From NCBI GenBank assembly GCA_958296135.2, contig CATQHZ020000001.1, positions 2,016,001-2,080,000 on the forward strand: a stretch of 64,000 nt of DNA, read 5' to 3'. This stretch comes from an uncultured Poribacteria bacterium. GTDB lineage: Bacteria; Poribacteria; WGA-4E; WGA-3G. The stretch's first letter is position 1. Each line of letters opens with the position of its first letter. Shown one piece after another: positions 22,141 to 57,587 of the stretch. Below the pieces are notes generated by a model. It saw only the letters and a list, made by a program, of their open reading frames with translations. It was not told the origin of the DNA and did not search any database. Made by a program: the position numbers and the translations under genes.

Positions 22141-22225
22141 ACGCGAGGGACAGGCTCACGCCATGCCACGAGCGCGAGGGGAACCCTCGGCGATTAGTGA
22201 TCGCCGGGTTTTCCCACGCGCTACA
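22141..22225. repeat. REP family B composite between convergent genes
   Basis: GCGAGGGACAGG and GAGGGGAACCCTCGGCGATT..GATCGCCGGG; reverse-complement match to units at ~52020-52075. Confidence 0.7.
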
Positions 22226-23050: not shown

Positions 23051-23638
23051 TTATCCTTCAGCGTCCGGCCGCGCGATGTGAAAGTCCACTTCGTGCTCGT
23101 CGTAAGCATCAAAAATTGCTCGGCAGAACGCCATCATCTTGTCATCCTGAATTGAGACCGCGGTTTCATACATTCTGATGAAGAAGCGTTTCCCGGCCTC
23201 AGACTGGGAATAGTTCTTCTTCATCAGGTTGTGTTGAGAACAGAGCGTTTGAGCGTTTTTAAGGGTGTTGGTGCCGCCCTTATCTTTCGGGATGATGTGG
23301 TCTACGGTGAGGGTAATCCCATCTTCGCGTCCGCGTCCACAGACAACACACCGATAACTATCTCGTGCCAAAATCGCTTCTTTATCCCGTGCCGAGAACT
23401 CAAGTAGTTCAACTTCGTGAACGTAGTCCGGATCATATTTGTAGACACCGGTTCTCACCTTAATCAGTTGACCTTTCTGATGGAGTTGTCTGATAACCCG
23501 CCACGGATCGCGCGGTGGGTTGTCATGTTCTTCAAGGTACTGCTCCGTTACCCAATCAACAACTGGACCATGCGACAGCTCTTGATTCGGATGATTCTCA
23601 AAATACTCCATGACAAGTCCCTCAATCGTTTTCGCCAT
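23051..23638 (-). CDS. HNH endonuclease with N-terminal winged-helix-like region
   Basis: CVVCG...VDHIIPKDKGG...NAQTLCSQHN; overlaps the MTase stop. Confidence 0.85.
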   Translation of the reverse strand: MAKTIEGLVMEYFENHPNQELSHGPVVDWVTEQYLEEHDNPPRDPWRVIRQLHQKGQLIKVRTGVYKYDPDYVHEVELLEFSARDKEAILARDSYRCVVCGRGREDGITLTVDHIIPKDKGGTNTLKNAQTLCSQHNLMKKNYSQSEAGKRFFIRMYETAVSIQDDKMMAFCRAIFDAYDEHEVDFHIARPDAEG

Positions 23639-24422
23639 GTGCATTCTCCTTTTTTTCAAACAGACGCAGCTGCTCAGTTGCCTGACAGACCCGCTCCTTA
23701 GCGAGTTTGCAGTAGCCTTCGTCAACTTCGATCCCGATGCCTTTGCGCTTGTTTAAATGCGCCGCGACTAAGGTGGTGCCGCTGCCCATGAACGGATCGA
23801 GAACCGTATCGTGGACGTAACTGAAAAGTTTGATGCACCGACGCGGCAGTTCAACCGGAAATGGCGCGGGGTGCCCGATCCGCTTCTTGCTCTCACCGGG
23901 AAACGTCCAGAGCCCATTTGTCCACTCCATGAACTCCTTCTTATTCATATCCGATTGCCCGCTCCCGCTCGTTTTCTTCCATTGCTCCTTGTAGAGAATG
24001 ACAATTAGTTCAACCGGTGCAATGACGTAAGGCGCGGATGCCTTCAGCCACGAGCCCCAAGCGGTTCGTCGGGAGATGTTGCCCTCGTTCCAAATAATCG
24101 TGGAGTGGTATTGAAACCCGATATCCGTTGCGAGTTTGGTTAGGTCAGCACCGACGTGCTTCTGTCCCCCTTTATTTTTATCCAGAGGTATGTTGAGACA
24201 GAAGCGGCCATCGGACTTGAGCCACTGGAAGCATCGGGAAAACCACGCCTCGGAAAAGGCGAGGTACTCGGTGTAAGAGAGTGCATCGTCATTTGAGTTG
24301 TATTTGATGTCAACGTTATACGGAGGCGATGTGACAATGAGATCAACGCTGTTTTCCTTGATTGCCCGGGTTGTAAGCACGTTCTCGTTGATTATCGCGG
24401 CGTGTTCGTCGGTAAAAAACAT
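23622..24422 (-). CDS. DNA amino-methyltransferase (beta-class, likely N4-mC)
   Basis: TSPPY catalytic motif precedes HPAPFP and VLDPFMGSGTT. Confidence 0.9.
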   Translation of the reverse strand: MFFTDEHAAIINENVLTTRAIKENSVDLIVTSPPYNVDIKYNSNDDALSYTEYLAFSEAWFSRCFQWLKSDGRFCLNIPLDKNKGGQKHVGADLTKLATDIGFQYHSTIIWNEGNISRRTAWGSWLKASAPYVIAPVELIVILYKEQWKKTSGSGQSDMNKKEFMEWTNGLWTFPGESKKRIGHPAPFPVELPRRCIKLFSYVHDTVLDPFMGSGTTLVAAHLNKRKGIGIEVDEGYCKLAKERVCQATEQLRLFEKKENAHGEND

Positions 24423-24488: not shown

Positions 24489-25346
24489 CTATTCGCCCCT
24501 TTCAATTAGCTGCTTGAAATCCGGGACGAAATGCTCAAACGACTTCACCTTGTCGCTCTCCTCAAGAATCGCCGAGGTGAGGACATAAGTGCCATCAAGC
24601 TCGTTTTCTGCGATAGCCCTTTCCTTCCTAGCAAGAAACGTGCTCGCCAAGAACTCGCCCCTATCAAGCGTGACAAAATAGACCTTGATGTGCGCTGTCA
24701 CTTTACTTGCCAGAAGTTTGGATCTCCAATAGGAGGCTTTGGCAATTCGCCATCCTGACGTGACTTCGGATAAAATGACAGCGATGACCTTGGAATTTTT
24801 CGGGTCGTAAACGACAGTATCAACATCCGGTAGGTAGAAACCGAATTTGCCGAAATCTACCGACAAATTCCGGTTAACAGCCACCAATTCTGGAGACAGG
24901 CTTGCGCCTCGCTCTAATTCTCGGAGGCTGATTACCTTTATGCCGTGTGCCTCTATCGGTTCAGTGAGAAGATGCTGAATGCGTTCTTCAAACCGTTTCC
25001 CTTTCAAAGCACGCCATCTCAGCAAATCGGCCTCTCGCAGTTCCGGTCCGACATCCTCAAGGATAACCGCTTCTTCAAGACCTCCGCACAAAACCACTTC
25101 CCCATAGTGTTCTATGAGGTCGTCCATAACGTGGCTTGTGTATGCGGCTCTCCTGAAATCGACGACATCCCGCGCTATTAGGGTATCCACGAGGACAGGG
25201 TCGGGGGTATATCCTATCTCGTAGAGGGTATCAGACAACAGGTTTCTCATTCCATCAAGAGGCCTGCCCCCATGACGCGGTGTCGGGATAGGACCTCGTG
25301 CTGTCGGGGCGGCTACGAGGGGTTTGAGTCCAGGTGGTTGTTTCAT
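24489..25346 (-). CDS. BsaWI-family type II restriction endonuclease-like protein, catalytic motif degenerate
   Basis: WRALKGKRFE, RNLSVDFGKFGFYLPDVD, HIKVYFVT and EESDKVK match my recollection of the BsaWI family. Confidence 0.65.
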   Translation of the reverse strand: MKQPPGLKPLVAAPTARGPIPTPRHGGRPLDGMRNLLSDTLYEIGYTPDPVLVDTLIARDVVDFRRAAYTSHVMDDLIEHYGEVVLCGGLEEAVILEDVGPELREADLLRWRALKGKRFEERIQHLLTEPIEAHGIKVISLRELERGASLSPELVAVNRNLSVDFGKFGFYLPDVDTVVYDPKNSKVIAVILSEVTSGWRIAKASYWRSKLLASKVTAHIKVYFVTLDRGEFLASTFLARKERAIAENELDGTYVLTSAILEESDKVKSFEHFVPDFKQLIERGE

Positions 25347-25349
25347 AAC

Positions 25350-27206
25350 TTAGGCATCTCCGTTGTTGCGAAGATACTCACGGCCGGCATCGGTGATTTC
25401 CCAGAGGCCTTGTGGAGAATCGCGTTTCATTAAACCCTTACGCACCAATTCCCACCGCATGCTATGGGTTCGGTTTTTCCAATACGGCTGCCCACTCGCC
25501 AAGCACTCTAGGTCTTTTGGCCCGAGCTCATCTACCATTAACAGGCGAATCCTCTTGAGCACTACGTGAGTTGCTGCAAAGCCATTGAGTTGCTCTAAGG
25601 CCTTTAAAATAGGCAACTTATAACGACTTCGCGGAAGAGGGACCTGCCGCGTTAACATCCCGGTGATGTCTGGCGGCACCTGAACGCCGTTTTGCTGCTC
25701 AAAGTCCGCGACGCTTTCATAATCGTTATGAAATGACGCGATGATATCCGCGCCCATGTCTCTAGCAACCGTTAGGTCTGCTTTGGCTTTGTCCCATTCC
25801 CTTAGGCGCAGCCACACTTTGCCGCGATTGCAGTAGGCATGGGCATAATTGGGATTGAGTGCTATCGCCGTGGTATAGTCTGCAATAGCCGTGTCAAAAT
25901 CGCCTTTTATGCCGTAAGCAACGCCGCGGTTGTTATAGGCCTTGGCATGATCGGGATTGAGTGCTATCGCCGTGTTAAAGTCTTGGATAGCCGTGTCAAA
26001 ATCGCCCTTGGTGCTATAAGCGTTACCGCGGTTGTTATAGGCATCGGCAAACTGGGGATTGAGTGCTATCGCCGTGTTAAAGTCTTTGAGGGCATTGTCA
26101 AAATCCCCTTTTTTGTCGTAAGCAATGCCACGGTTGTTATAGGCCTCGGCATAATTGAGATTGAGTGCTATCGCCGTGTCAAAGTCTTTGATAGCATTGT
26201 CAAAATCGCCCTTGGTGCTATAAGCGTTACCGCGGTTGTTATAGGCATCGGCAAGCTGGGAATTGAGTGCTATCGCCGTGTTATAGTCCTGAATGGCGTT
26301 GTCAACATCGCCTCTTTCGCCATAAGCAACGCCGCGGTTGTTATAGGCATCGGCATCATCGGGTTTGAGTTCTATCGCCGTGGTATAGTCTGCAATAGCA
26401 TTGTCAAGTTCGCCTTTTTCGTTGTAAGCAATGCCGCGGTTGTTATAGGCCTCCGACATATCGGGTTTCTGTGCCAAAGCCTCGGTATAATGCCCCACGG
26501 ATTTGTCATACCACTTCCGTTTTTCTGCCCGCGTTTTCGCTGAATCTCCTCGATTTTGACAGGTCATCCCTTTATGAAACTGCGTGTAGGCACTTTCATG
26601 GATGCTCCGGTTCGTGATAAATCCATGGAGGTCATTGTAGATAGTTTCGGTGGAAATGTCGTGGTGCTTCCGCAGGTAGTTTAGCATAGACTGTTTAAGT
26701 TCTTTTGGGACAGTCACTACCGCGTCCGGTTCAACAAAACCTTTGGATGCTTGCACGAATATGCTTTTCTGGGATTCCACGCGATTAATCGTCTTCGGCG
26801 GTTTTTCGACCTCGTAGTCGTCCGATTCCTTTTCTAGCAAGATAACCCGGCCGACTTTGTCACGCTCTCCATCACAAGCAAAGAAAAGAGCAATGAGGTA
26901 GTCAGTCGTAAAGTCAATTAGGTTGGTTTTCCCGCCATAGTGTTGGAGTGCTGTCAGGATCTCCAAATCGTTGGCGGTTTCGCGGGTATACTTTCTCGCC
27001 TCGTCCAGAATTTCTTTTTGGACGATATCTATCTCGAAACTTTTCTCCTCAATATCTTTCACATAGTCGCGATAGAGGGTTGAAGAGACTTTCTCATAGT
27101 ATTCAGGCTCGCCGCGAAAGATGTAGTCACCGCTAGCCGATTTCTCAGCTATCTCGCAGATCTTTTTCAGAACGCAGTTGAGTTCGTTTTGTTGTCGTGT
27201 GTTCAT
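25350..27206 (-). CDS. FRG domain + TPR array (7 NRG units) + C-terminal Mrr_N-like winged helix
   Basis: YIFRGE, LQHYGGKTNLIDFTTD, ALFFAC, SQKSIF; 34-aa repeats; tail PILKALEQLNG...WKNRTHSMRWELVRKGLM...GLWEITDAGREYL. Confidence 0.85.
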   Translation of the reverse strand: MNTRQQNELNCVLKKICEIAEKSASGDYIFRGEPEYYEKVSSTLYRDYVKDIEEKSFEIDIVQKEILDEARKYTRETANDLEILTALQHYGGKTNLIDFTTDYLIALFFACDGERDKVGRVILLEKESDDYEVEKPPKTINRVESQKSIFVQASKGFVEPDAVVTVPKELKQSMLNYLRKHHDISTETIYNDLHGFITNRSIHESAYTQFHKGMTCQNRGDSAKTRAEKRKWYDKSVGHYTEALAQKPDMSEAYNNRGIAYNEKGELDNAIADYTTAIELKPDDADAYNNRGVAYGERGDVDNAIQDYNTAIALNSQLADAYNNRGNAYSTKGDFDNAIKDFDTAIALNLNYAEAYNNRGIAYDKKGDFDNALKDFNTAIALNPQFADAYNNRGNAYSTKGDFDTAIQDFNTAIALNPDHAKAYNNRGVAYGIKGDFDTAIADYTTAIALNPNYAHAYCNRGKVWLRLREWDKAKADLTVARDMGADIIASFHNDYESVADFEQQNGVQVPPDITGMLTRQVPLPRSRYKLPILKALEQLNGFAATHVVLKRIRLLMVDELGPKDLECLASGQPYWKNRTHSMRWELVRKGLMKRDSPQGLWEITDAGREYLRNNGDA

Positions 27207-27551
27207 CTTCTCTCCTCAGTGATAGTCAAAAATGTGCCCCTAATAGGGACGATACGAATAAACTCTCCGGAGTTGCAGCGTCTTCTTCTGCAAGTTGACT
27301 GCCTCCATCATTGAGTTTCGGGTTTTGACGCGCGGGTAAACAGCGCGGCGTTTCTTGTCGAAGCGGTGCTGCGCTTCGGCGGGTCCGAGTGTCTGGAATC
27401 GTTCACGAACCCTTGCAAAAATAGGATACCACAAAACGCTCAAATTTGCAACGAAAAACGTAATGATAACGTTAGTTTACTACAAAAAAGCGGTGTATGT
27501 CAAGAAAAAAAGATGAGCGAATTCGGATGTGGCGCGTTTCAGGTTCTGGAA
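27207..27551 (-). repeat. Cassette joint copy 1 (spacer with twin promoters + structured leader)
   Basis: Near-identical to 31708-32004, 33817-34035 (leader part) and 29515-29668 (spacer part). Confidence 0.9.
27423..27503 (-). promoter_or_regulatory. Tandem promoters carried by the joint
   Basis: TTGACA-N18-TAAACT (27503-27474) and TTGCAA-N17-TATCCT with TG extension (27451-27423); conserved in the other joints. Confidence 0.6.
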
Positions 27552-27680
27552 CTATTCCCGCGTCAGCATTTCCGCGAGGTCTGGCGGCACCTGAACATCG
27601 TTTTTCTGCTCAAAGTCCGCGACGCTTTCGTAATAGTTATGAAATGAGGCGGTGATATCCGCGCCTTTGGCTTTGGCTAT
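27552..27680 (-). pseudogene. Orphan 3' end of an FRG-TPR gene
   Basis: Encodes AKGADITASFHNYYESVADFEQKNDVQVPPDLAEMLTRE*, the C-terminus of the paralogs, without an upstream gene body. Confidence 0.85.
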
Positions 27681-28108
27681 GTCGCTTGCAATACCGCAAT
27701 CGTTTCTTGTTGCTTTTGGACGCTCTCCTGCAGTTTGCTCAACTTTTTATAAAGAAAACCGCCCACCGCCAAAACCAAGGGGACTAGCGCAATCATGAAG
27801 TTTCGCTGATCTGTGATACGCTGGCTTTGCCCGCGGATTTCGCCCTTCATCTCGCTCACCTCGGCTCTCGTCTCACTCAGTTCAGTCCTTACTGCGCTGA
27901 GTTCAACTTTCGTCTCGCTGAGTTCAGTTTTCATCGCGCTGAGTTCAGCTTTCATCGCGCTGAGTTCGGTTTTTATTTCGCTGAGTTCAGTCTTCACCTG
28001 CGCTGCGGCGGCGTTCCCGATGGCTTTAATCTCCTCTCCGCTGAGCTCGCCGAACGTCGGCGCATTCCAGAGCAGTAGTGCCACGAAAACAATCACATAG
28101 ACTCTCAT
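27677..28108 (-). CDS. Exported/membrane coiled-coil protein with 21-bp heptad repeats
   Basis: Signal peptide, (ELSAMKA/ELSETKV) heptads, C-terminal TM helix; RBS aaggag. Confidence 0.7.
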   Translation of the reverse strand: MRVYVIVFVALLLWNAPTFGELSGEEIKAIGNAAAAQVKTELSEIKTELSAMKAELSAMKTELSETKVELSAVRTELSETRAEVSEMKGEIRGQSQRITDQRNFMIALVPLVLAVGGFLYKKLSKLQESVQKQQETIAVLQAT

Positions 28109-28211
28109 TTCTGTCTCCTTTAGTAGTCGCGTCCAAAGGATCTTTGTATAACGCTGCGTCATTGCTTGCTAAATCGGTTTTGCGCAGCCAATTCACCGAT
28201 TCTGTCACCGG

Positions 28212-29276
28212 TTATTCGGCTAAATGCTGCAAGAATGTCTCCAGGTCTGGAACCTGTCCGGCGACAGGAAGTAGCTGCTTGAGGCGTTCCACCTCTGTGA
28301 CGTTTTCAAAGGTGGGGCGCAAGGCCTGCACGACTGTCGGGTTGAATCGCGATTCAAGGATAACCATAAGGCCGTCAATAGTTGCACTTCGTTTGCCTTG
28401 TTCGCGGGCTTGTGCCGCTTGTTCACGGGCTTGTGCTGCTTGTTCGCGGGCTTGTTCGCGGGCTTGTTCGCGGGCTTGTGCTGCTTGTTCACGGGCTTGT
28501 GCCGCTTGTTCACGGGCTTGTGCCGCTTGTTCCACAACTTGCGATACGCGCTGATTCGCTTCCGCCATGAGGGCGGCTTCCTGCTCCGCGAAGCGGCTCT
28601 GAAAGAGACTTTGAAGATAAGGTGAATGTTCCACGAGATCCCTCCGAATAAAACGATTAAGTTGTTCCTCACTATAGCCAGCACTGCCAAATACACCCAG
28701 CAACGCCATTAAGTCTGCCAGAAGGGCATCCGGCACCGGCGCAGCCGCTGTGGCACGAACACACTCACGCAACCAAGCATCGGCATCCATCCCCGGCGGC
28801 GGCTGCATCAGCGGCGTGAAAGGCAACAACGCCGGTTCCTGCGCCTCCAACACCGAAACACCGTCTATCTCACTCAACCGCAGCACCTTATACCGCAAGG
28901 AAAAGTGATGCGCCTCACCCCACTGGCACGCATACCCACCCAGATCCTGTCGCCCAGCACGCGGATGCAAATAGATGACACTGCAATACACCGGCACCTC
29001 ATGTTCCGAAATGAGATAGCCGCAATACCCCGTCATCCGGAAGTGCATCTCTTTCTCGCGGCTGTCGTGCAATTGCACTTCGGTATGTGCTATCGCCTCT
29101 TCGCCGTTGATAAGCATTCGCACCGTGCTATCGCCACGCCGCACCCACATCCGCTGCTGTTCCGTGTCCAGTCTGCTGAGCACCTTGATGTCGGATGTCT
29201 CCAACAGGTACTTCAGGATGGGTTCACCAAGTTCCAGTAGCAAATGTTTGGCTGCACTATCGTAAGGCGTTCGCAT
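28212..29276 (-). CDS. Rpn/YhgA-like PD-(D/E)XK putative transposase/nuclease with heptad repeat
   Basis: YDSAAKHL, RRGDS...HTEVQ...MHFRM, LLPFTPLM; EQAAQAR repeats at 28398-28532. Confidence 0.75.
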   Translation of the reverse strand: MRTPYDSAAKHLLLELGEPILKYLLETSDIKVLSRLDTEQQRMWVRRGDSTVRMLINGEEAIAHTEVQLHDSREKEMHFRMTGYCGYLISEHEVPVYCSVIYLHPRAGRQDLGGYACQWGEAHHFSLRYKVLRLSEIDGVSVLEAQEPALLPFTPLMQPPPGMDADAWLRECVRATAAAPVPDALLADLMALLGVFGSAGYSEEQLNRFIRRDLVEHSPYLQSLFQSRFAEQEAALMAEANQRVSQVVEQAAQAREQAAQAREQAAQAREQAREQAREQAAQAREQAAQAREQGKRSATIDGLMVILESRFNPTVVQALRPTFENVTEVERLKQLLPVAGQVPDLETFLQHLAE

Positions 29277-29514
29277 TAAATTATACCTCAATTGGTTTCG
29301 TCATGTTAAGCCGTTTTTTACGGCACATTTTTTACACAGCGGCAACCGATAGTGCTTCCTGATGTGGGATGATACCCTCAGTAGGCGAGGCGTAAGTCTT
29401 CCGCACTGCTATGCTAGCCGCCCTAGCGCAGGACGCAAAAATTTCCTGCCTCCATTGTGCCTGCAGTGGTACCCTTCCGTGAGTCTAAGATGTCTCCGCT
29501 CCTTTCGGCAGCAA

Positions 29515-29668
29515 ACGTTCACGAACCTATGTCAAGAATAGGATATCACAAAACGCTCAAATTTGCAACGAAAAACGTAATGATAACGTTAGTTTACTAC
29601 AAAAAAGCGATTGATGTCAAGAAAAAAAGACAAACGAATTCGGAAGTGGCGCGTTTCAGGTTCTGGAG
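29515..29668 (-). repeat. Cassette joint copy 2 (spacer/promoters, leader truncated)
   Basis: Same sequence as 27400-27551; homology stops just beyond CGTTCACGAAC. Confidence 0.9.
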
Positions 29669-31036
29669 CTATTCCCGCGTCAGCATTTCCGCGAGGGCTG
29701 GCGGCACCTGAACGCCGTTTTGCTGCTCAAAGTCCGCGACGCTTTCATAATCGTTATGAAATGACGCGATGATATCCACACCTTTGTCCCTGGCAACCGT
29801 TAGGTCTGCTTTGGCTTTGTCCCATTCGTGGAGGTGCATCCACGCTTCGCCGCGATTGCAATAGGTTTCGGCATCATCGGGATTGAGTTCTATTGCCGTG
29901 TTAAAGTCTTTGATGGCGGTGTCAAAATCGCCTTTTCGGTGGTAAGTAACGCCGCGATTGTTGTAGGCATCGGCATAATTGGGGTTGAGTTCTATCGCCG
30001 TGGTATAGTCTGCAATAGCCGTGTCAAAATCGCCCTTTTTGAGGTAGGCCACCCCACGATTATAAGAGGCCAGAGCAAGATTTGGTTTGAGTTCTACCGC
30101 TCTTGCAAAGTCGCTGACGGCCTGGTCGTATCTGCCTATTCCAACGTAGATGGTGCCTCGGTTATTGTAGACCTCGGCAGCATCAGGTTTCAAGTTTATC
30201 GCTGTGCTAAAATCACTGATGGCCTTGTCCTCCTCACCTATGCTGGCGTAAACGTTGCCGCGATTGTTATAGGCTTCGACATAATCGGGTTTCAACTTCA
30301 GAGCCTCAGTATAATGCGCGATGGATTTTTCATAATTCGCGTTATTTTGACACCGCAAACCGCTACAAAGTTCCTCAAAGGCCGTGTGATAGATTCCTTG
30401 TATCCTAATAAATCCATGAAGATCGTTGTAGATGGTTTTTGCGGAGATATTGTGGAACTTTCGCAGATAATCCAGCATAGGAATTTTGATGGATGCCGGC
30501 ATCGTCACAACATCTTCCGGGTCAAATTCGACAAATCCTTGGCGAGGTTGAACAAATACACTTTTCTGGGCCATCACGCGATTAAGTGGTTTGCTCGGTT
30601 CGCGAGGGATGTCAATTAGTTCTTCTAGATCGTCCCTTCTCCGCAAGATAATCCTGCCATCCTCATCATGGGAGCCGTCGCATGCGAAGAAGAGGGCCAC
30701 ACGAGAGTCGCTCGTAAACTCAATTAGATTGGTTGCTCCCCCATGAAAATGAAGTTCAGTTAGGATTTCAAAATCGCTGTCGGCGGCGATTCCAGGGAGA
30801 TGTTCTCTCACCGTCTCCAGCAATTTATCTTGAATGGCCTCTGCATCAAAGTAAGATCCCACACTCCTCAGGTGTTGGTTGTAGAGGGTCGACGAAACTC
30901 TCGGATAGTATGCAGGTTCACCGCGGAAAATGTAGTCAACGCTGGCGGACTTGTCCTCGATTTTCCGGATGATCTTCCGCACCTTGCCGAGTGCGTTTTG
31001 GTGTGAGGGGTTCATCATTTTCATAAAGGTCACCAT
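29669..31036 (-). CDS. FRG domain + TPR array (5 NRG units)
   Basis: YIFRGE, LHFHGGATNLIEFTSD, ALFFAC; TPRs; shared C-terminus. Confidence 0.85.
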   Translation of the reverse strand: MVTFMKMMNPSHQNALGKVRKIIRKIEDKSASVDYIFRGEPAYYPRVSSTLYNQHLRSVGSYFDAEAIQDKLLETVREHLPGIAADSDFEILTELHFHGGATNLIEFTSDSRVALFFACDGSHDEDGRIILRRRDDLEELIDIPREPSKPLNRVMAQKSVFVQPRQGFVEFDPEDVVTMPASIKIPMLDYLRKFHNISAKTIYNDLHGFIRIQGIYHTAFEELCSGLRCQNNANYEKSIAHYTEALKLKPDYVEAYNNRGNVYASIGEEDKAISDFSTAINLKPDAAEVYNNRGTIYVGIGRYDQAVSDFARAVELKPNLALASYNRGVAYLKKGDFDTAIADYTTAIELNPNYADAYNNRGVTYHRKGDFDTAIKDFNTAIELNPDDAETYCNRGEAWMHLHEWDKAKADLTVARDKGVDIIASFHNDYESVADFEQQNGVQVPPALAEMLTRE

Positions 31037-31092
31037 ATCTAGCGTGCAAAGGCTACTGATGCAGGTTAATTGGAAAGTTGCCTTCGCTCCAC

Positions 31093-31668
31093 TTAAAGTT
31101 GTCTGGATGGGGACAAGTTTATCCTATTTGAATCTGGTATCCCCACAAAGTCTTCTTTGGGCTGAACAATCTTTTCTGCTTCCGCTTTCACGCTTCCGTC
31201 TACAACGTTGGATTTAGACAGATACTTTTGGAAGGCGGATACAGTTTCTTGCTCGTTTCCAAGAGTGATGGAATAGAACTTCCGATTTCTCCATGAAACA
31301 TGCGTTTTGTAAGACAGATAAAAGTCCCACGTTTTGCCATTAGTCAGAACGCCAAGGTCAATTCCCTGCTGGAAAACATAGCGGGCTATCTGCCTTTGAG
31401 ATGCCTCGTCCGATTCAATTTTGACACGCCACCGTTTGCACTCAACGAACACCAGAGGTTTTGCCTCATGTTGTAAGGCATAGTCAACCTTGCCATTTGC
31501 AGCCCTCCGTTCTGGGAGAACCTCTAAAGTCTCCAAATTGCTGTCATTCCAGCCTAGGGCCCTAAGGATAGGTAGAACGACAAACTGTTTCGTCGCGAAT
31601 TCGTCAAAGTCGCGGGCTTCAATGGTTCCCGTAAACTGCACAATGTGAGCGATGGTTTGTTCCAGCAT
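31093..31668 (-). CDS. Stand-alone HsdR N-terminal (type I REase-like) nuclease domain protein
   Basis: EFATKQFVVLPILRALGW, EVLPE, VDYAL, VECK, QIARY and GVLTNGKTWDFY motifs. Confidence 0.8.
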   Translation of the reverse strand: MLEQTIAHIVQFTGTIEARDFDEFATKQFVVLPILRALGWNDSNLETLEVLPERRAANGKVDYALQHEAKPLVFVECKRWRVKIESDEASQRQIARYVFQQGIDLGVLTNGKTWDFYLSYKTHVSWRNRKFYSITLGNEQETVSAFQKYLSKSNVVDGSVKAEAEKIVQPKEDFVGIPDSNRINLSPSRQL

Positions 31669-31707
31669 GTTTCCTCTTCGTATCAGCAATTGCCTGCCTG
31701 AACGGGC

Positions 31708-32004
31708 CGAATAAACTCTCCGGAGTTGCAGCGTCTTTTTCTGCAAGTTGACTGCCTCCATCGTTGAGTTTCGGGTTTTGACGAGCGGGCAAACGGCGCG
31801 GCATTTCTTGCCGAAGCGGTGCTGCGCTTCGGAGGGTCCGAGTGCCTGCAACCGTTCACGAACTCTTGCAAGAATAGGATATCACAAAATGCACAATTTT
31901 TCAACGAAAAACGTAATGATAACGTTAGTTTACTATAAAAAAGCGGTGTATGTCAAGAAAAAAAGACCTGCGAATTTAGATGTGGCGCATTTCAGGTTCT
32001 GGAG
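31708..32004 (-). repeat. Cassette joint copy 3
   Basis: Spacer + leader homologous to 27256-27551. Confidence 0.9.
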
Positions 32005-33816
32005 CTATTCCCGCGTCAGCATTTCCGCGAGGGCTGGCGGCACCTGAACATCGTTTTTCTGCTCAAAGTCCGCGACGCTTTCATAATCGTTATGAAATGA
32101 CGCGATGATATCCGCGCCCATGTCTCTGGCAACCGTTAGGTCTGCTTTGGCTTTGTCCCATTCGCGGAGGTGCAGCCACGCTTCGCCGCGATTGTAATAG
32201 GTTTCGGCATCATCGGGATTGAGTGCTATTGCCGTGTTAAAGTCTTTGATGGCGGTGTCAAAATCGCCTTTTTTGTCGTAAGCAATGCCGCGGTTGTAAT
32301 AGGCATCGGCGAGCTGGGGATTGAGTGCTATCGCCGTGGTATAGTCTTTGATGGCGGTGTCAAAATCGCCTTTTCTACCGTAAGCAATGCCGCGGTTGTA
32401 ATAGGCATCGGCGAGCTGGGGATTGAGTGCTATCGCCGTGGTATAGTCTTTGATGGCGGTGTCAAAATCGCCTTTTTTGCCGTAAGCAATGCCGCGATTG
32501 TTGTAGGCCTCGGCAAGCCTGGGATTAAGTTCTATCGCCGTGTTATAGTCTTTGATGGCGGTGTCAAAATCGCCTTTTTCGTGGTAAGCAGCACCACGGT
32601 TGTAATAGGCCTCGGCAAGCTGGGGATTGAGTGCTATCGCCGTGTTAAAGTCTGCAATAGCCATGTCAAAATCGCCTTTTCTACCGTAAGCAGTGCCACG
32701 GTTGTTATAGGCCTTGGCATCATCGGGATTGAGTGCTATTGCCGTGTTAAAGTCTCTGACGGCGGTGTCAACATCGCCTTTTCTACCGTAAGCAATGCCG
32801 CGGTTGTTATAGGCCTCGGCATAATTGGGGTTGAGTTCTATTGCCTTGGTATAGTCCTGAATGGCATCGTCAAAATCGCCCTTGTTGCTATAAGCAATGC
32901 CGCGGTTGTAATAGACCTCGGCATAATTGGGGTTGAGTTCTATCGCCTTGGTATAGTCTTTGATGGCGTTGTTAAATTCGTCTTTTTTGCCGTAAGCGTT
33001 ACCGCGGTTGTTATAGGCTACTACAAAATCGGGTTTGAGTTCTATCGCCTTGCTAAAGTGTCGGATGGCCTCGTCATACAAACGTTTATCATTGGCAGAA
33101 CGACCTCTGTAAAGTTCCTCGTAAGCCCTATGATGGATATCCTGTATTCTGATGAATCCATGCAGGTCGTTATAGACAGTTTTCGCAGATATGTTGTGAT
33201 ACTTCCGCAGGTAATCCGACATAGGTTCTTTGAGTTCTGCCGGAATCACAACAACATCCTTGTCTCGGTCGAATTCAACGAAGCCTCGGCAAGGGCGAAC
33301 GAATATGCTCTTTTGAGCGATAACACGATTAAGGGGATTGCTCGGTTCGCGCGGGTTTTCAACGAGATTTTTTATTTTCGCTCTTTTTTTTACGATAATT
33401 CTTCCATTCTTGCCGGAGGAACCGTCGCATGCGAAGAAGAGAGCCACGCGCGAATCGGTCGTAAAGTCGATCAAATTCGTTTTGCCACCGTAGTGTTGAA
33501 GTTCGGTGAGGGTTTCAAAATCATGGGCTGGTTCGGAGGGGATCCCTATTGCTGTGTCTGGTCTCCTCATTGGGGTTTCAAAGTCGCTGGTTGTTCCGGG
33601 GAGATGCTCTTTCGCTGCGGTTAGCATCTCCTTTTGGAAATCTTCCACATTGGATCCATCTGTCAGAATTTCTTCGTATTCGCGGTAGAGGGTTGAGGAG
33701 ACTTCCTCATAGCATTCAGGCTCGCCGCGAAAGATGTAGTCACCGCTGGCGGATTTGTCCTCTATTTCCCGGATGATGTCCCGAACCCGACTGAGTTCGT
33801 CTTGTTGTGTGTTCAT
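32005..33816 (-). CDS. FRG domain + TPR array (9 NRG units)
   Basis: YIFRGE, LQHYGGKTNLIDFTTD, ALFFAC; near-identical 102-bp repeats. Confidence 0.88.
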   Translation of the reverse strand: MNTQQDELSRVRDIIREIEDKSASGDYIFRGEPECYEEVSSTLYREYEEILTDGSNVEDFQKEMLTAAKEHLPGTTSDFETPMRRPDTAIGIPSEPAHDFETLTELQHYGGKTNLIDFTTDSRVALFFACDGSSGKNGRIIVKKRAKIKNLVENPREPSNPLNRVIAQKSIFVRPCRGFVEFDRDKDVVVIPAELKEPMSDYLRKYHNISAKTVYNDLHGFIRIQDIHHRAYEELYRGRSANDKRLYDEAIRHFSKAIELKPDFVVAYNNRGNAYGKKDEFNNAIKDYTKAIELNPNYAEVYYNRGIAYSNKGDFDDAIQDYTKAIELNPNYAEAYNNRGIAYGRKGDVDTAVRDFNTAIALNPDDAKAYNNRGTAYGRKGDFDMAIADFNTAIALNPQLAEAYYNRGAAYHEKGDFDTAIKDYNTAIELNPRLAEAYNNRGIAYGKKGDFDTAIKDYTTAIALNPQLADAYYNRGIAYGRKGDFDTAIKDYTTAIALNPQLADAYYNRGIAYDKKGDFDTAIKDFNTAIALNPDDAETYYNRGEAWLHLREWDKAKADLTVARDMGADIIASFHNDYESVADFEQKNDVQVPPALAEMLTRE

Positions 33817-34074
33817 CTTCTTTCCTTGATGATAGTCAAAAATGTGCCCCTAATAGGGACGATACGAATAAACTCTCCGGAGTTGCAGCGTCTTCTTCTG
33901 CAAGTTGACTGCCTCCATCGTTGAGTTTCGGGTTTTGACGCGCGGGAAAACGGCGCGGCGTTTCTTGCCGAAGCGGTGCTGCGCCTCGGTAGGTGCGAGT
34001 GTCGCGCTTCTTGGCTGCGAACGTTCACGAACCTGTGTTAAACATAGGATACCATAAACCGCATAAAATTGCAA
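33817..34074 (-). repeat. Leader copy with promoter at the island's upstream edge
   Basis: Near-identical to 27207-27410; TTGCAA-N17-TATCCT at 34074-34046. Confidence 0.85.
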
Positions 34075-34088
34075 GGAAAAAACGGACG

Positions 34089-34763
34089 CTAGATTTCGTT
34101 TGAATCCGATACCTCCTGAAATCTATTTTCCTCTAATTTTGGCAACATGTCAAGCGTCCTTAAGGCATCGAGATACCGTTTCGCCTGCTCTCCTGCACCG
34201 GTGGGAGACATCACGCCTGACATCACGGCGATGCCAGAAGCCCCCGACTCGATGCATGCCGCAACTCGTTCTGGCGTAATCCCACCGAGTGCAAAAATGG
34301 GAATCTTTACCTGTTTCGCTAGCCGCGCAAGATTCGCTACGCCGACTGCAGGGCCGTATCCCGGCTTGCTCGCGGTAAGGTAGATGGGACTGTAAGTGAC
34401 GAAATCAGCCCCTTCGGCTTCGCGTTTTTTGGCTTCGTCAACATTGTGAATGGAACAGCCAATCTGCAAAGTTTCGCCAGCGCGTTGTAAGCGCGCTGTT
34501 GCGTGTGCAGGCAAATGAACCCCCGCAGCTCCAACTGCCCGTGCAACCTTGACATTTCGGTTGATGAAAAGCGCGGCATCGTAAGACAGGCACCGAACAG
34601 CAATCGGTTTTGCCATTTGATATAAGGCGAGCTCGTCTAAGTCTTTTTCGCGCAATTGGATAGCGCGCACGCCTGCATCTAGCAGTTCTGAGATGACATC
34701 TAATAACGGGGTTGGGGCGCAGCGGTGCCGGTCGGTGATAGCATATAGATTAAAACCGCTCAT
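34089..34763 (-). CDS. thiE: Thiamine phosphate synthase (ThiE/TenI family)
   Basis: LYAITDR, IQLREKD, GVHL, SPIYLTASKP and FALGGI motifs. Confidence 0.8.
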   Translation of the reverse strand: MSGFNLYAITDRHRCAPTPLLDVISELLDAGVRAIQLREKDLDELALYQMAKPIAVRCLSYDAALFINRNVKVARAVGAAGVHLPAHATARLQRAGETLQIGCSIHNVDEAKKREAEGADFVTYSPIYLTASKPGYGPAVGVANLARLAKQVKIPIFALGGITPERVAACIESGASGIAVMSGVMSPTGAGEQAKRYLDALRTLDMLPKLEENRFQEVSDSNEI

Positions 34764-34765
34764 GC

Positions 34766-36220
34766 TCACGTAGTTTTGCGGCGGAGGCGCGCTGCGAACG
34801 CGCCATCAACGCCGTGTTCATGCGGGAAGGTCTGGACGAAGCCTTCAGGCGTTAGCGCGCTCGGTGGAAGGTGAGGTAAAAACGGCCGTGCGTGCTCCAC
34901 GGTATACATCGGAAACGCCGCTAGAAACCGACGGATAATCTCTTCGTTCTCCTGCGGTTCTACGCTACAAGTGCTATAGACAAGCACGCCGCCGCGTTTA
35001 ATATGCGGTGCGGCGTTCCGCAGCAGATTGAACTGCAATTCGCAGAGCGCGCTGAGTTGCGCAGCAGTCCTATTCCATCGGATATCTGGGTGCCGCCGCA
35101 GCGTGCCAAACCCCGAACAGGGCGCATCGATAAGCACGGCATCGGCATTTGTGATAAACCCGAGCTCTGCCTTCGTGGCATCGAGCACCTGTGTTTCAAC
35201 GTTGAGCGCGCCGATGCGTCGACAGTTGTTTTTTAAGCGCGCGAGCCGCTGCTCGGAGATATCCGCGGCAATGATTTTGCCTGAGTTGCCCATTAGGTGC
35301 GCGAGATGCGTCGTTTTGCCGCCAGGTGCTGCACACAAATCAACGACGAGCTGCATCTCTGCCGGCGCGAGCAGCGGCGCGACGAGCATCGCACTCTCGT
35401 CTTGCACATAGATATCGTCGCGATTCAGTACCGACTTTAAGGTTCTTTCGCCCTCTGGCGCGTTGTCCCGCTCGGCAGTATCAAACGTGGTGGGTTCGCG
35501 GTTGACGAATACCAATCCATCGGGCGCGAGCGTGGAGACTTGTGTGGATATCCCACTTGCCTTGAGGGATTCGCGGAGCTCCTTCACTTGTGTGAGGAGG
35601 CAATTCATCCGAAAGGCGAGGGGTGCTGTGTGGTTACTGGCGCGGCAGAACGCGAGCGTCCACGAAACCCCGCGCGTCTCAAGCCACTGTTTCACTAGCC
35701 ACGTCGGATAAGACTGGGAGAGGGAAATGTGTTCAACCGGATTCTCGCCGAGCGGCGGATAGGTTAACGCGTGTCCCTCGCGTTGCACGGAGCGCAAAAC
35801 GCCGTTGATGAACCCCGCTGTTTTGCTGCCGCTCTTCGCCTGGAACCCACGCCTACCGGTGCGAGCTCTCCTTTTGTAGCCGGAACCTCCCGAGCCCAAT
35901 GCCCGTTTTGCCAATTGGACAGTCTCAAAAATCGCCGCGTGCGCGGGAATGCCGTCCAAGTGCAATAACTGAAACGCGCCGAGGCGGAGGATGTGACGGT
36001 GACGCATATCCACCTGAAACCGGGGATTGATGAAGTGATTCAGCACCCAATCGAGCTGCTTCTGCCATCGGACAACACCATAGACGAGCCCGTTTACCAA
36101 TCGCCGGTCGCGGCCGCTGATAGCGTGTTTTTGGAACGCGCTGTCAACGACAACAGACACCGATGCACGGGTTTGCGAGATAGACAGCAGGCACTCTAGT
36201 GCAACTTCGCGAACGCTCAT
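34766..36220 (-). CDS. rsmB: 16S rRNA m5C967 methyltransferase RsmB/Sun
   Basis: NusB-like N-terminus, VQDES, DLCAAPGGKT, DAPCSGFG and YSTCS motifs. Confidence 0.92.
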   Translation of the reverse strand: MSVREVALECLLSISQTRASVSVVVDSAFQKHAISGRDRRLVNGLVYGVVRWQKQLDWVLNHFINPRFQVDMRHRHILRLGAFQLLHLDGIPAHAAIFETVQLAKRALGSGGSGYKRRARTGRRGFQAKSGSKTAGFINGVLRSVQREGHALTYPPLGENPVEHISLSQSYPTWLVKQWLETRGVSWTLAFCRASNHTAPLAFRMNCLLTQVKELRESLKASGISTQVSTLAPDGLVFVNREPTTFDTAERDNAPEGERTLKSVLNRDDIYVQDESAMLVAPLLAPAEMQLVVDLCAAPGGKTTHLAHLMGNSGKIIAADISEQRLARLKNNCRRIGALNVETQVLDATKAELGFITNADAVLIDAPCSGFGTLRRHPDIRWNRTAAQLSALCELQFNLLRNAAPHIKRGGVLVYSTCSVEPQENEEIIRRFLAAFPMYTVEHARPFLPHLPPSALTPEGFVQTFPHEHGVDGAFAARLRRKTT

Positions 36221-50725: not shown

Positions 50726-50987
50726 GTAGGAGAGACCTCCCGCGTCTCGATGCAATACCGTAGGAGAAACCTCCCGCGTCTCGATGCAATACCGTAGGAT
50801 AACCTTCCCGCGTCTCGATGCAATACCATAGGAGAAACCACCCGCTCTCAATGTAATACCGTAGGAGAAACCACCCGCTCTCAATGTAATACCGTAGGAG
50901 AAACCACCCGCTCTCAATGTAATACCGTAGGAGAGACCTCCCGGTCTCGATGCAATACCTTAAGAGAAACCACCCCGGTCTCGATGC
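50726..50987 (+). repeat. Tandem array of 8 REP family A units (33-34 bp period)
   Basis: Unit starts at 50726, 50760, 50794, 50828, 50861, 50894, 50927 and 50960. Confidence 0.92.
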
Positions 50988-57494: not shown

Positions 57495-57587
57495 TGGGTT
57501 CTCCTCTGTCTGAATTTCAAATTTGCAGGATTAACGGGAGGCGAGGGACAGGCCCTCGCCCTACGATGAAGGGGACGGTAAACGTGG

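Follow-up and report, generated by a model that had tools for sequence, protein, structure and literature searches.

The interval between thiE and thiD holds a defence island that probably arose by tandem duplication of an FRG-TPR gene and was afterwards kept mosaic by homologous recombination, its units being separated by two-layer joints with a leader that we read as a cis-acting RNA. The joint elements are repeated along the array, the heads and tails of the FRG-TPR genes have discordant histories, and the mosaics differ between species. The more novel result of the analysis is the leader family itself, whose members lie for the most part ahead of restriction and defence genes.

Layout of the thiE-thiD island

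The window, that is, the whole stretch of 64,000 nt that was analysed, comes from a genome referred to here as G000, and two congeners (G001 and G002) served for comparison. The host is a sponge-symbiont bacterium of a Candidatus Poribacteria genus. The entire 11-kb island of G000 lies between thiE and thiD, and all features given below with coordinates are on the minus strand. Its upstream core flank is thiE, encoding thiamine phosphate synthase (34089-34769, minus strand; NCBIfam TIGR00693, E 9.9e-42), and its downstream core flank is thiD (22221-23048; Pfam Phos_pyr_kin, 6.4e-93). The synteny of thiE is kept in both congeners, thiE and thiD are adjacent to each other at 6 of 11 loci from other genera, and thiD is present in 17 of 17 genomes of the family.

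A first-pass annotation had described a minus-strand array with repeated joints, and Pfam and repeat searches placed all of its elements at or near the positions given there. FRG-TPR, HsdR_N, Rpn-like and coiled-coil genes are split by four joints, and a type II restriction-modification (RM) system and an HNH gene come after them. FRG-TPR9 (32005-33816) consists of an FRG head of the ART superfamily, nine TPRs and a tail (Pfam FRG 3.3e-13; TPR_1 in 9 stretches; PADLOC PDC-S15 3.8e-16). It is followed by a gene with an HsdR_N domain (31093-31851; Pfam HSDR_N 9.3e-08), whose reading frame is open from 31851 with a likely ATG at 31668 and which in G002 is fused to an FRG-TPR gene. FRG-TPR5 (29669-31036; Pfam and PADLOC PDC-S15) represents in the tree a third FRG lineage without an orthologue in either congener. 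The next gene encodes a 359-aa protein (28212-29291) with its own promoter-like site at 29280-29309 (11/12 consensus match). It had been labelled Rpn, a label that found no Pfam or NCBIfam match at E<=0.01 and persists as a lead from a language model, which relates the N-terminal part to Rpn/DUF2887 clusters (ESM Atlas score 0.96); the C-terminal part contains 21-nt tandem repeats (28376-28563, repeat family D7). Beyond it lies a 161-aa protein with hydrophobic ends (27677-28162) that gave coiled-coil matches only. The last FRG gene, FRG-TPR7-tail-Mrr_N (25350-27206; Pfam FRG 6.5e-16, Mrr_N 5e-08), also carries the tail internally, upstream of Mrr_N, and in the tree FRG7 is orthologous to the only FRG gene that G001 has and to FRGb in G002. 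The island closes with a BsaWI-like REase (24489-25346; Pfam), an N6_N4 DNA methylase (23622-24422; Pfam; PADLOC MTase_II 9.8e-98) and an HNH endonuclease (23051-23725; Pfam). All three FRG heads match both FRG (E 3e-08 to 6.5e-16) and PADLOC PDC-S15 (2.3e-10 to 3.9e-19).

Two layers in each joint

The joint is a composite of two unrelated layers. One is gene-specific and consists of the conserved C-terminal tail of FRG-TPR genes plus a 100-nt downstream spacer; the other consists of a promoter and a two-domain leader of ~170 nt. Tail, spacer and promoter together form a 300-nt repeat in three copies (27416-27715, 29533-29832 and 31869-32168; 82-92% identity). The leader is repeated at 27192-27393 and 33802-34003 (94%) with a partial copy at 31645-31846, and a 79-nt promoter block occurs in four copies.

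Ahead of FRG-TPR9, a promoter-like site P2 (TTGCAA-17-TATCCT, 34046-34074; consensus match only) precedes leader copy L9 (33860-34032), defined by alignments and by a match to the leader model R1 at 33860-33962 (109.5 bits). The 5′ domain of L9 begins at GTTCGTGAACG (34032), and a terminator-like hairpin with a T run (33837-33860) lies between L9 and the FRG9 start codon. The gene-specific part of joint 1 (31905-32154) includes the tail (32005-32154) and a 100-nt spacer with the promoter-like site P1 (31927-31956). Its leader part (31703-31904) includes P2 (31876-31904) and leader copy LH (R1 match 31703-31805), in which homology to the other leader copies stops after AGAGTTTATTCG (31708). Joint 2 (29443-29818) is made of the tail (29669-29818), P1 within the spacer (29591-29620), P2 (29540-29568) and a short leader variant. 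This joint had been called truncated, and its leader is indeed short, but the promoter and the 5′ domain of the leader are kept and the leader ends in the core at ~29443. G002 has kept the same variant, which makes the truncation an old one. In joint 3, the gene-specific part (27452-27690) is an orphan tail from 27552 to ~27690 plus a spacer with P1 (27474-27503), and the leader part (27227-27451) contains P2 (27423-27451) and leader copy L7, which R1 matches at 27250-27352, and closes with a terminator-like hairpin (27227-27250). The orphan tail, noticed already in the first pass, is real: it has no gene body, follows the coiled-coil gene immediately past its stop codon and is 91.3% identical to the FRG9 tail. 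In G002 the corresponding position is taken by the tail of a gene with TPRs only, which fits the earlier suggestion that a gene body was replaced while the joint was kept.

Two promoters per joint had also been proposed. Consensus matches are there, but the 9 promoter-like sites counted in a scan compare with 7.0 +/- 2.9 in shuffled sequence; the promoters, the transcription start site and the leader RNA itself are predictions. When a 509-nt joint was compared with the whole genome, 5 of the 14 matches fell in the array and the other nine were pieces of 24-98 nt. Tail and spacer are thus private to this locus, whereas the promoter-leader part recurs genome-wide at the head of other defence operons.

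Concerted evolution of tails and spacers

The joints had been described as alike in spite of diverged FRG domains, and synonymous divergence bears this out: between FRG9 and FRG5, dS falls from 1.35 over the FRG domain to 0.072 over the last TPR and the tail. Such a drop within one gene pair cannot be explained by selection at the protein level. Nucleotide identity of the FRG domains tracks orthology (84.6% for G0_FRG9/G2_FRGa and 88.3% for G0_FRG7/G2_FRGb, against 67-73% for paralogues), whereas that of the tails tracks the genome (89.5-94.8% within G000 versus 80-82% to orthologues). The spacers are 88-93% identical within G000 versus 72-77% to G002. Grouping by genome was rejected for the FRG tree (p-AU 0.0009) and the orthologue pair was rejected for the tail tree (p-AU 0.026), the tail tests covering 81 codons of six genes from three genomes.

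These comparisons indicate that tails and spacers have been homogenised within each genome by gene conversion. FRG9 itself is a chimera with b-type leader and first codons and an a-type body, given that its unit is 93-98% identical to L7 across the leader and 82-90% identical to G2_FRGa across the body. The joints do recombine, as had been proposed earlier, tails and spacers taken together being 88-95% identical within G000 versus 72-82% to the orthologues of the congener. The leaders are 85-91% identical within G000 and 81-90% between species; with values so similar, they give no clear signal of conversion themselves.

Variation among congeners and at a second hotspot

The thiE-thiD site carries one, two or three FRG-TPR genes in the three congeners, arranged in different mosaics. 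In G001, HsdR_N-Mrr_N and a 188-aa ORF are followed by a leader and a single FRG-TPR10-Mrr_N. In G002, the order is leader, HsdR_N-FRG-TPR9 fusion, a joint with a 480-nt repeat insert, FRG-TPR5, short leader, TPR-only gene and RM. Unit order and number thus differ among the three, and the fixed order expected from one old tandem duplication was not seen.

Arrays of leader-headed units exist at two loci. At the second hotspot, orthologous tandem leaders head unrelated cargo. In G000 they precede ParB_N, HTH_ParB and a 341-aa gene; in G002 they precede HATPase_c_3 and a 370-aa gene, after which come a third leader and, behind it, a helicase and AAA_23. Homology stops there directly past ...GTTTATTTA, the 3′ end of the leader. 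Overall, the break points of the cargo vary and fall at the leader 3′ end, inside the leader core, after the P2 hairpin or inside a coding sequence.

A leader family linked to defence operons

G000 contains 11 full and 3 partial copies of the leader, and its congeners contain 9 and 15 full copies. An nhmmer search of G000 returned 15 hits (E<0.01), and CM R1 returned 11 hits in G000, 9 in G001 and 15 in G002. The same model had no hit in 58 genomes of 12 other genera and, at E<=0.5, none in 34 genomes from 5 other genera of the same family, and the leader had no match at E<=1 among 4227 Rfam families. On these searches, the family appears confined to one genus. The full R1 model (1-117) is covered by 34 of the 35 matches, and the remaining one covers 33-106. 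For every copy whose downstream gene was read, the leader lies upstream of that gene and in the same orientation. In the leader tree, the copies group by locus across species and not by genome, which argues against exchange between loci via the leaders.

The predicted 5′ domain contains helices P1 and P1a. The 3′ domain comprises, besides a P2 hairpin, the outer stem AACUC/GAGUU, the stem GGAG/CUCC, the internal loop GCAGUCAAC, which is invariant, and a further stem, UUGCAG/CUGCAA, whose tip varies. In the 3′ domain, 89.3% of cells are paired versus 30-45% with slid partners, and the covariation score was reached by 0 of 500 shuffles. The corresponding values for the 5′ domain are 73.4% versus 27-47%, and no pairing support was found for the outer extension of the 5′ helix. 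Double changes occur at 11 of 23 pairs in the 3′ domain and at 8 of 16 in the 5′ domain, a modest covariation in a highly conserved core, among related sequences and in an alignment (A3) that was fitted to the model. In the helices, G-U combinations outnumber A-C ones (66 versus 22). Single-sequence folding energy was not better than that of shuffles (z -0.43), and the variable tip was no more stable than expected (mean z -0.09 for 33 copies). We read the leader as a cis-acting RNA, which would be transcribed, folded and regulatory, possibly by attenuation.

Among the operons headed by the leader, 27 of 31 start with restriction or defence genes, as judged from domain names; orthologous loci of the three genomes are not independent in this count, and the leader tree resolves about 16 distinct loci. 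Ten further head or downstream proteins were compared with PADLOC and eight matched a model at E<=1e-8; the matches include DrmMII (8e-164), TmtA (1e-103 and 3e-194), CARF-HEPN (1e-121) and HerA (2e-30). In each genome of the genus, about a dozen defence operons that are unrelated in other respects have a leader of this family at their head. Leader copies of the Dcm type and HerA type are arranged in tandem without an intervening promoter, and those of the SACS type have a different promoter (TTGACA/TATAAT), so that the folded part, and not the promoter, is what stays constant.

Origin of the array and competing explanations

In the scenario that we consider probable, an FRG-TPR immune gene would have been duplicated in tandem between thiE and thiD. 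Within each genome, tails and spacers would then be homogenised by gene conversion or unequal crossing-over, with the 102-nt TPR repeats and the tails supplying the homology for exchange, and the FRG heads would escape homogenisation and retain their old divergence. Recombination within tails, TPRs, leaders and the conserved 5′ part of the coding sequence may add, remove or re-pair units. Illegitimate insertions, of which the Rpn-like and coiled-coil pair may be an example, would also add units, and no dedicated site-specific machinery would take part in this turnover.

The first-pass annotation had compared the array to an integron. A true system of that kind, with the joints or the folded leader as ssDNA serving as dedicated sites by which an unidentified recombinase moves cassettes, could account for the exchanged cargo and the sharp end of homology at the second hotspot, for the existence of two arrays of leader-headed units and for the changing unit order. 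We regard it as very unlikely, because the genome (94.7% complete) has 0 matches to PF00589, the tyrosine recombinase family (positive control 14/14), the break points lie at several positions, the tail and spacer are specific to one paralogue family and the repeat, unlike attC, stands 5′ of genes with promoter-like sites. The three-to-one excess of G-U over A-C shows a fold in the sense strand alone, a pattern compatible with RNA and also with sense-strand DNA. No alternative joint is supported by the contigs; the one candidate, from 30294 to 33152, has depth 3 and a side of 25. Varying break points, the missing recombinase and leaders that group by locus argue together for homologous and illegitimate recombination at a defence hotspot; the recombining joints and the shifting cassette order of the earlier interpretation hold, but the integron analogy is not supported as a mechanism. 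An assembly artefact, in which repeated units were joined wrongly or duplicated, is extremely improbable. Joint copies differ by 6-18% and can be told apart, every unique segment is covered at even depth (26-30 versus 21-24 in the flanks in run X1), contigs at 27600-28434, 28494-29576 and 30005-31768 bridge borders between unique and repeated sequence, and homologous joints occupy the same site in two other assemblies of the genus. The contigs come from four runs of a single sample, from which the assembly itself may derive, and among the 32 pieces listed, with 275 more beyond the listing, none spans a whole joint, so that unit order rests on the assembly itself.

One old tandem triplication, static since, in which strong purifying selection on tail, promoter and leader kept the joints alike, would agree with the nearly equal leader identities within and between genomes (81-91%) and with the tail being a conserved protein module, found also in FRG-TPR genes elsewhere in the genome. 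It is highly improbable in view of the drop in synonymous divergence inside one gene pair, the genome-specific likeness of a non-coding spacer, the discordant head and tail trees and the different unit order and number in the three congeners. The leader might alternatively act at the DNA level, as a promoter with operators for a shared transcription factor or as the relic of a spreading repeat. Its restriction to one genus with 9-15 copies per genome, a block GGTTCGTG directly past the -10 site in a possible operator position and the unremarkable stability of the whole fold and of its variable tip would suit such a module, which we nevertheless think unlikely. Nested helices are preserved through double changes, G-U is favoured over A-C, the folded part persists where the promoter is missing or different, nearly all matches cover the whole R1 model, the copies keep their position and orientation relative to genes, and grouping by locus across species is unlike an active mobile repeat.

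Relation to known systems

Defence islands and hotspots sit between conserved core genes. The thiE-thiD array resembles them as an 11-kb restriction and defence block with different content in three congeners, but differs from the usual islands in being dominated by recombining tandem paralogues and in having a leader common to defence operons elsewhere in the genome. Orphan modules of Rhs/CDI systems recombine via a retained stretch of the conserved region. The array likewise keeps a gene-less conserved fragment, the orphan tail, and its shared tracts let neighbours re-pair modules by homologous recombination. It is, however, a mirror image of the Rhs/CDI arrays reported with orphan toxin modules (PMC3967940), in that conservation lies in the 3′ end and the intergenic leader, and the module that varies is the FRG head at the N terminus. 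Pfam found neither an Rhs or CdiA core nor immunity genes in the array, and its proteins are putative cytoplasmic immune sensors, unlike secreted toxins. Phage-defence cassettes have been reported from chromosomal and mobile integrons (bioRxiv 10.1101/2024.07.02.601719; PMC12614218). As in these, a row of defence genes is split by a recurring non-coding element, expression signals stand at the head, content varies among close relatives and one hotspot keeps its head element while the cargo differs. In contrast to integrons, the genome has no IntI or other tyrosine recombinase, the repeat with its promoter-like sites and leader is 5′ of each gene and not 3′ as attC is, junction positions vary and the repeat consists in part of coding sequence from a single gene family. 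The FRG domain (PF08867) has been assigned to the ART superfamily, with a proposed role as an antiviral effector that may be an NADase (PMC9503650). The three array heads match this domain and the PADLOC candidate PDC-S15 but continue into 5-9 TPRs and a tail specific to the family, and in one of them also into Mrr_N; their activity is putative.

In T-box and riboswitch classes, a structured leader precedes many operons of one functional theme. The leader family follows this pattern, as one class of 5′ leader, sometimes in tandem, before many operons of a single theme. It differs in having no Rfam match, in its occurrence in one genus only, in its theme, anti-phage defence, and in that no ligand, partner or general expression platform was identified for it. 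WYL-domain (BrxR-type) transcription factors have been reported to co-localise with diverse defence systems (PMC9122601). The leader, in its predicted role, would similarly be a regulatory device shared by many unrelated defence systems, but as a cis element with RNA-like conservation and with no linked regulator gene found, in place of a protein regulator beside each system. A shared folded leader on about a dozen defence operons hints that the immune arsenal of these bacteria may be under common control.

The defence island between thiE and thiD

The interval between thiE (34089-34769) and thiD (22221-23048), the upstream and downstream core flanks on the minus strand, is an 11-kb block in which the leader, FRG-TPR genes, cargo, orphan tail, and restriction-modification and HNH genes follow one another in the minus-strand order proposed by the first-pass annotation. 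The leader is the first element of the island and precedes FRG-TPR9 (32005-33816), which ends in a joint, that is, an FRG-TPR tail followed by a 100-nt spacer, a promoter and a further leader. Next come an HsdR_N gene (31093-31851 as an open reading frame, with its likely ATG at 31668) and FRG-TPR5 (29669-31036), whose joint has a short leader; a 359-aa gene (28212-29291) and a coiled-coil gene (27677-28162); an orphan FRG-TPR tail (27552 to about 27690) with its own joint; and an FRG-TPR7-tail-Mrr_N gene (25350-27206), after which lie genes for a BsaWI-like restriction endonuclease, an N6_N4 methylase and an HNH protein. All these genes are on the minus strand, and the FRG-TPR, HsdR_N and restriction-modification genes were assigned with Pfam. 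Pfam and PADLOC matches, together with synteny with two congeneric genomes (G001 and G002), identify the island as a defence-gene cluster between conserved core genes whose content varies in relatives. In six of 11 loci of other genera thiE abuts thiD, which indicates that the island is an insertion in this genus.

All three FRG genes of the array pass the Pfam cut-off for FRG, and their heads match the PADLOC model PDC-S15 with E values from 2.3e-10 to 3.9e-19. The FRG domain has been assigned to the ART superfamily and is a proposed antiviral effector, possibly an NADase (PMC9503650). The domain is widespread in the group, being present in 25 of the 31 genomes searched, and the source genome (G000) has seven matches, three of them inside the array. 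For the name Rpn given earlier to the 359-aa protein there is a language-model lead only; searches of Pfam, NCBIfam and PADLOC returned no Rpn-type match. Inside the gene of this protein, a 21-nt tandem repeat in seven registers (28376-28563) encodes a series of E-, Q-, A- and R-rich heptads.

Two layers of the joint

The joints proved to be alike among copies: all four align as described, and three 300-nt copies of tail, spacer and promoter are 82-92% identical. The leader copies in the array are 94% identical and a repeat finder resolved the 102-nt TPR unit in 19 registers. The joint regarded as truncated does have a shorter leader, but its promoter and leader 5′ domain are still present; FRG7 is fused to Mrr_N as noted, but the tail also sits internally in this gene, which had been overlooked. 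As for the two promoters claimed for each spacer, the consensus matches exist, and each array unit has its own predicted promoter-like sites P1 and/or P2, but their number (9, against 7.0 +/- 2.9 in shuffles) is not in excess.

When the joint was sought elsewhere, a 509-nt query gave 14 matches in the 5.19-Mb genome, five of which fall in the array, whereas the other nine are pieces of 24-98 nt. A profile of promoter and leader gave 15 hits at E<0.01 in the same genome, corresponding to the three queries, one short copy in joint 2 and 11 hits at further loci, two of which carry tandem pairs. These searches indicate that the joint is made of two layers: tail and spacer are private to the array locus, and the leader belongs to a dispersed family.

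Concerted evolution of the array

In G001 and G002 both flanks of the island are syntenic and the content is different. The G001 island contains a promoter, an HsdR_N-Mrr_N gene, a 188-aa open reading frame, a leader, a single FRG-TPR10-Mrr_N gene, a methylase and an HNH gene. That of G002 starts with a leader and an HsdR_N-FRG-TPR9 fusion, followed by a tail and a spacer with an insert of about 480 nt that consists of short dispersed repeats; it continues with a leader, FRG-TPR5, a short leader, a TPR-only gene whose tail has decayed, and a spacer, and ends with a methylase-like gene, a restriction endonuclease and an HNH gene. The two relatives differ in their units, so that the single fixed order set against cassette exchange at the outset is not what they present. 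Pieces of the G002 insert (L053:11546-12025) give 479 blastn hits in G000 and are found in the window at 17916-17948, 50925-50957, 52317-52345, 53639-53667 and 57540-57574; two other G002 leaders (L058 and L060) also have similar pieces immediately upstream.

The divergence of the FRG domains alongside similar joints was borne out by the comparison of paralogues, whose heads are 67-73% identical at the nucleotide level while the G000 tails are 89.5-94.8% identical. The heads are old lineages that follow orthology: FRG9 pairs with the G002 gene G2_FRGa (84.6%), the FRG7 head groups with the G002 gene G2_FRGb (88.3%) and the G001 gene (82.6%), and FRG5 stands alone. The G000 tails, in contrast, are just 80-82% identical to their own orthologues, and the non-coding spacers are 88-93% alike within G000 versus 72-77% to orthologues. 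AU tests rejected both a grouping of the heads by genome (p-AU 0.0009) and a grouping of orthologous tails (p-AU 0.026). Between FRG9 and FRG5, dS falls from 1.35 in the head to 0.072 in the last TPR and tail; between FRG9 and FRG7 the corresponding values are 2.23 and 0.27, and the species-level dS of thiD is about 0.33-0.40. Protein-level selection is unable to reduce dS, so exchange of the 3′ parts has taken place after the species diverged. The tandem paralogues have evolved in concert, by gene conversion or unequal crossing-over that has affected tails and spacers.

Exchange has also produced mosaics. The FRG9 unit is a chimera: its leader shares 93-98% identity with that of FRG7, and its body shares 82-90% identity with G2_FRGa from about +128 onwards. 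The orphan tail, previously taken as the sign of a replaced gene body, sits at the position of the tail of the G002 TPR-only gene; this fits the replacement of a TPR-only gene body by the 359-aa and coiled-coil genes, which bear their own promoter-like site. Between orthologues, dN/dS is 0.15-0.30 in the FRG heads and 0.10-0.13 in thiD. The heads evolve under purifying selection, and diversifying selection on them is unsupported by these values. The last TPR and tail have a dN/dS of about 0.5-0.8 between species over 81 codons and are near-uniform within the genome. Speculatively, such fast change between species and uniformity in the genome could reflect a partner, or a phage-borne inhibitor, that the tails have in common.

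A dispersed leader family restricted to the genus

A covariance model of the leader 3′ domain (R1; 117 positions, 23 pairs) identified 11 copies in G000, and nine and 15 in the two other species of the genus. The model found no match in 58 genomes of 12 other genera and, at E<=0.5, none in 34 genomes of the five other genera of the family. Scanning positions 26500-35000 of the window on both strands with the Rfam 15 covariance models gave no match at E<=1. The leader core pattern occurs in 14 stretches of public genome contigs, 12 of them in records titled Candidatus Poribacteria; the other two (Ktedonobacterales and Anaerolineae) and one short stretch in public metagenome contigs were taken as chance, and these genome and metagenome contigs yielded no additional relatives. 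Three further G000 loci have the 5′ domain only, namely joint 2, a methylase with an HsdR_N domain and a CARF-HEPN gene.

In most copies the first open reading frame begins 18-75 nt past the leader motif on the same strand, and each leader copy points towards its downstream gene wherever that gene was read. Tandem copies are found at two loci. In the leader tree, copies cluster by locus across the three species and by genome only inside two arrays, which rules out a genome-wide homogenisation of leaders. An origin as a MITE-like mobile repeat is likewise at odds with the clustering by locus and with the orientation of the copies towards their genes. The Dcm-type and HerA-type copies are in tandem without a promoter between them, and the SACS-type copies have a different promoter, so it is the folded part and not the promoter that is constant in the family. 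The promoter was also considered for this role and rejected: nhmmer with the promoter and 5′ domain strongly recovers just its 10 input copies, and the promoter part alone gives weak hits throughout the genome.

In the predicted fold, the 5′ domain of the leader has a helix P1 (GGUUCG with CGGACY) around a hairpin P1a. The 3′ domain would comprise a hairpin P2, an outer stem AACUC/GAGUU, a stem GGAG/CUCC, the invariant internal loop GCAGUCAAC and a stem UUGCAG/CUGCAA with a variable tip, and the leader copies have their 3′ end at AGAGUUUAUUC. Besides the two domains, leader copies have in common one or two variable hairpins. In the 35 R1 matches, which are related sequences in an alignment fitted to the model (A3), 89.3% of cells are paired versus 30-45% with slid partners, double changes occur in 11 of the 23 pairs, and the covariation score was reached by none of 500 shuffles. 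In the 5′ domain, 73.4% of cells are paired versus 27-47%; its core helices pair well and the outer extension does not. Across the leader helices G-U pairs outnumber A-C (66 versus 22), as expected if the sense strand folds. The fold gains no support from the folding energy of the FRG7 leader as a single sequence, which is ordinary relative to shuffles (z -0.43), or from the last helix, whose variable tip has ordinary stability (mean z -0.09; below -1 in three of 33 copies). A downstream complement to the loop GCAGUCAAC, as a pseudoknot or Shine-Dalgarno masking would have, was discarded, a match of at least 6 nt being present in six of 34 copies versus eight of 34 in the upstream control.

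Most leader-headed operons start with putative defence genes

The link between the leader and defence genes became evident when the first downstream genes were read with Pfam and the heads were counted with tandem copies grouped. Restriction or defence-type genes, a label judged from domain names, start 27 of the 31 leader-headed operons, a count in which orthologous heads of the three genomes are non-independent, the leader tree resolving about 16 distinct loci. The nine heads of G000 are, in the array, FRG-TPR9, HsdR_N (then FRG-TPR5) and FRG-TPR7-Mrr_N with its restriction-modification genes and, at other loci, ParB_N with HTH_ParB, a C5 methylase with a GHKL ATPase, HerA, HsdR_N with a coiled coil, a Sacsin-domain protein and an AAA_15/AAA_21 ATPase. 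G002 has 14 heads, 13 of restriction or defence type, and adds GmrSD, a PAPS reductase with HNH_2, HsdR_N-Tubulin_2, nSTAND1 with HEPN, PLD-SNF2, a NOV_C protein and a ResIII helicase with an SMC-like ATPase. Its remaining leader (L062:478-595) is followed, 166 nt downstream, by a gene for a secreted-looking LRR-dockerin-FlgD_ig protein and then by a sulfatase gene. Five of the eight G001 heads are of restriction or defence type; the others are a ParA-like pair, one without a Pfam match and one cut by the contig end.

When 10 further head or downstream proteins were searched with PADLOC, eight matched a model at E<=1e-8. Matches include DrmMII (8e-164), TmtA (1e-103 and 3e-194), MTase_I (1e-288), CARF-HEPN (1e-121), NsnB (3e-44), HerA (2e-30) and, weakly, LmuB; the GHKL ATPase reached only 9e-10 and the ParB_N protein had no PADLOC match. 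HsdR_N recurs as the first domain behind leaders, either alone or fused to Mrr_N, FRG-TPR or N6_Mtase. Six genes of leader-headed operons have no Pfam match at E<=1e-4 (L068:3348-4997, L015:1300-2325, L017:939-2531, L022:1298-2506, L055:6913-8025 and L064:2786-4216) and are candidates for new defence components.

Probable recombination at defence hotspots

A second hotspot was identified by comparing G000 (C1 3056478-3056957; L015) with G002 (L055:6437-6555, 9706-9824 and 10225-10343). Its flanks (79-91%) and tandem leaders (83-86%) are orthologous, the cargo is unrelated, and homology stops directly past the leader 3′ end. The cargo consists of ParB_N, HTH_ParB and a 341-aa gene in G000, and of HATPase_c_3, a 370-aa gene, a third leader copy, a ResIII helicase and an SMC-like ATPase in G002. 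The third leader copy, lying between two blocks of cargo, makes this locus a second array.

Such a locus is what would be expected from an integron-like system in which the leader serves as the platform for incoming cassettes, and the exchange of tails and spacers and the mosaics agree with the cassette exchange originally proposed. However, the break points vary. At joint 2 the break lies inside the leader core and is an old event common to G000 and G002. At G000:C1 1242920-1243028, a decayed remnant whose upstream sequence and leader 5′ part are 86% identical to the G002 copy heading the TmtA/NOV_C gene, the break falls after the P2 hairpin, the core and 4.0 kb of cargo having been lost and 1.3 kb of other sequence being present instead. 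A further break lies within a coding sequence, past an HsdR_N domain that stands behind the same leader in both species and continues into Tubulin_2 in G002 (L063:531-3347) and into a coiled coil in G000 (L018:1673-4039). The clustering of leaders by locus across species also speaks against an integron-like system. The array is integrase-free, as had been claimed: the search for PF00589 gave no match in the whole 94.7%-complete source genome and was positive in 14 of 14 control genomes. Not even a Xer-type tyrosine recombinase was detected in G000 by this search.

Whereas an integron has IntI beside the array, an attC site 3′ of each cassette and promoterless cassettes under one common promoter, the island belongs to a genome with no detected tyrosine recombinase, its repeat is located (by inspection) 5′ of the genes, homology breaks at four kinds of place and the units have predicted promoter-like sites of their own. 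Rhs and CDI arrays, in turn, are built on an Rhs or CdiA core with toxin-immunity pairs, domains that Pfam did not find in the island; the two have in common just the logic of an orphan fragment that keeps a recombining tract. Given the varied break points, the lack of PF00589 and the clustering by locus, we read the system as the product of homologous and illegitimate recombination at defence hotspots, where the leader would owe its retention to its function and its upstream position rather than to a role as a recombination site.

The assembly is the basis for the order of the island units. In the contigs of four runs, all taken from one sample, no alternative joint is supported, and none of the contig pieces listed spans a whole joint. 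One contig of run X3 (depth 3 versus about 112; side 25) joins 30294 to 33152, skipping 2857 nt, and links the first TPR regions of FRG5 and FRG9; this junction was discounted as weak, but if real it would be a recombinant of two units.

Possible mode of action and significance

The leader is probably part of the mRNA and would act in cis. In both FRG copies of the window, the leader is followed by a terminator-like hairpin (27227-27250 and 33837-33860) and a T run, which makes attenuation one candidate mode; no general expression platform was seen among the leader copies. It is possible, although we consider it unlikely, that the leader responds to infection as a riboregulator, either a riboswitch or an attenuator to which a protein or small RNA binds, and that it places the whole variable immune arsenal of the genus on one signal and remains as a fixed platform at the hotspots during cargo exchange. 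If so, restriction-modification systems, a DISARM-type methylase, Tiamat-like genes, HerA, a PARIS/OLD-like ATPase, GmrSD, CARF-HEPN, FRG-TPR and others would be under its control, and the platform would do the job of an integron promoter and attI without a recombinase.

The co-ordination of dozens of unrelated and often toxic defence systems in bacteria is, to our knowledge, poorly understood, and the shared devices known so far are protein regulators encoded beside single systems. A limited search of the literature on shared leaders of defence systems and on FRG in defence found no such element described. In three genomes of an uncultivated group of sponge symbionts, about a dozen unrelated defence operons per genome are headed by one putative cis element, whose conservation is RNA-like and which stays when the cargo changes. 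The array itself is a clean natural case of immune-gene paralogues with sensor and tail parts made uniform in a genome and effector heads that remain distinct. If the leader is a regulator, it would give direct access to control of the whole arsenal and could serve as a sequence tag by which new defence genes of this lineage are found.
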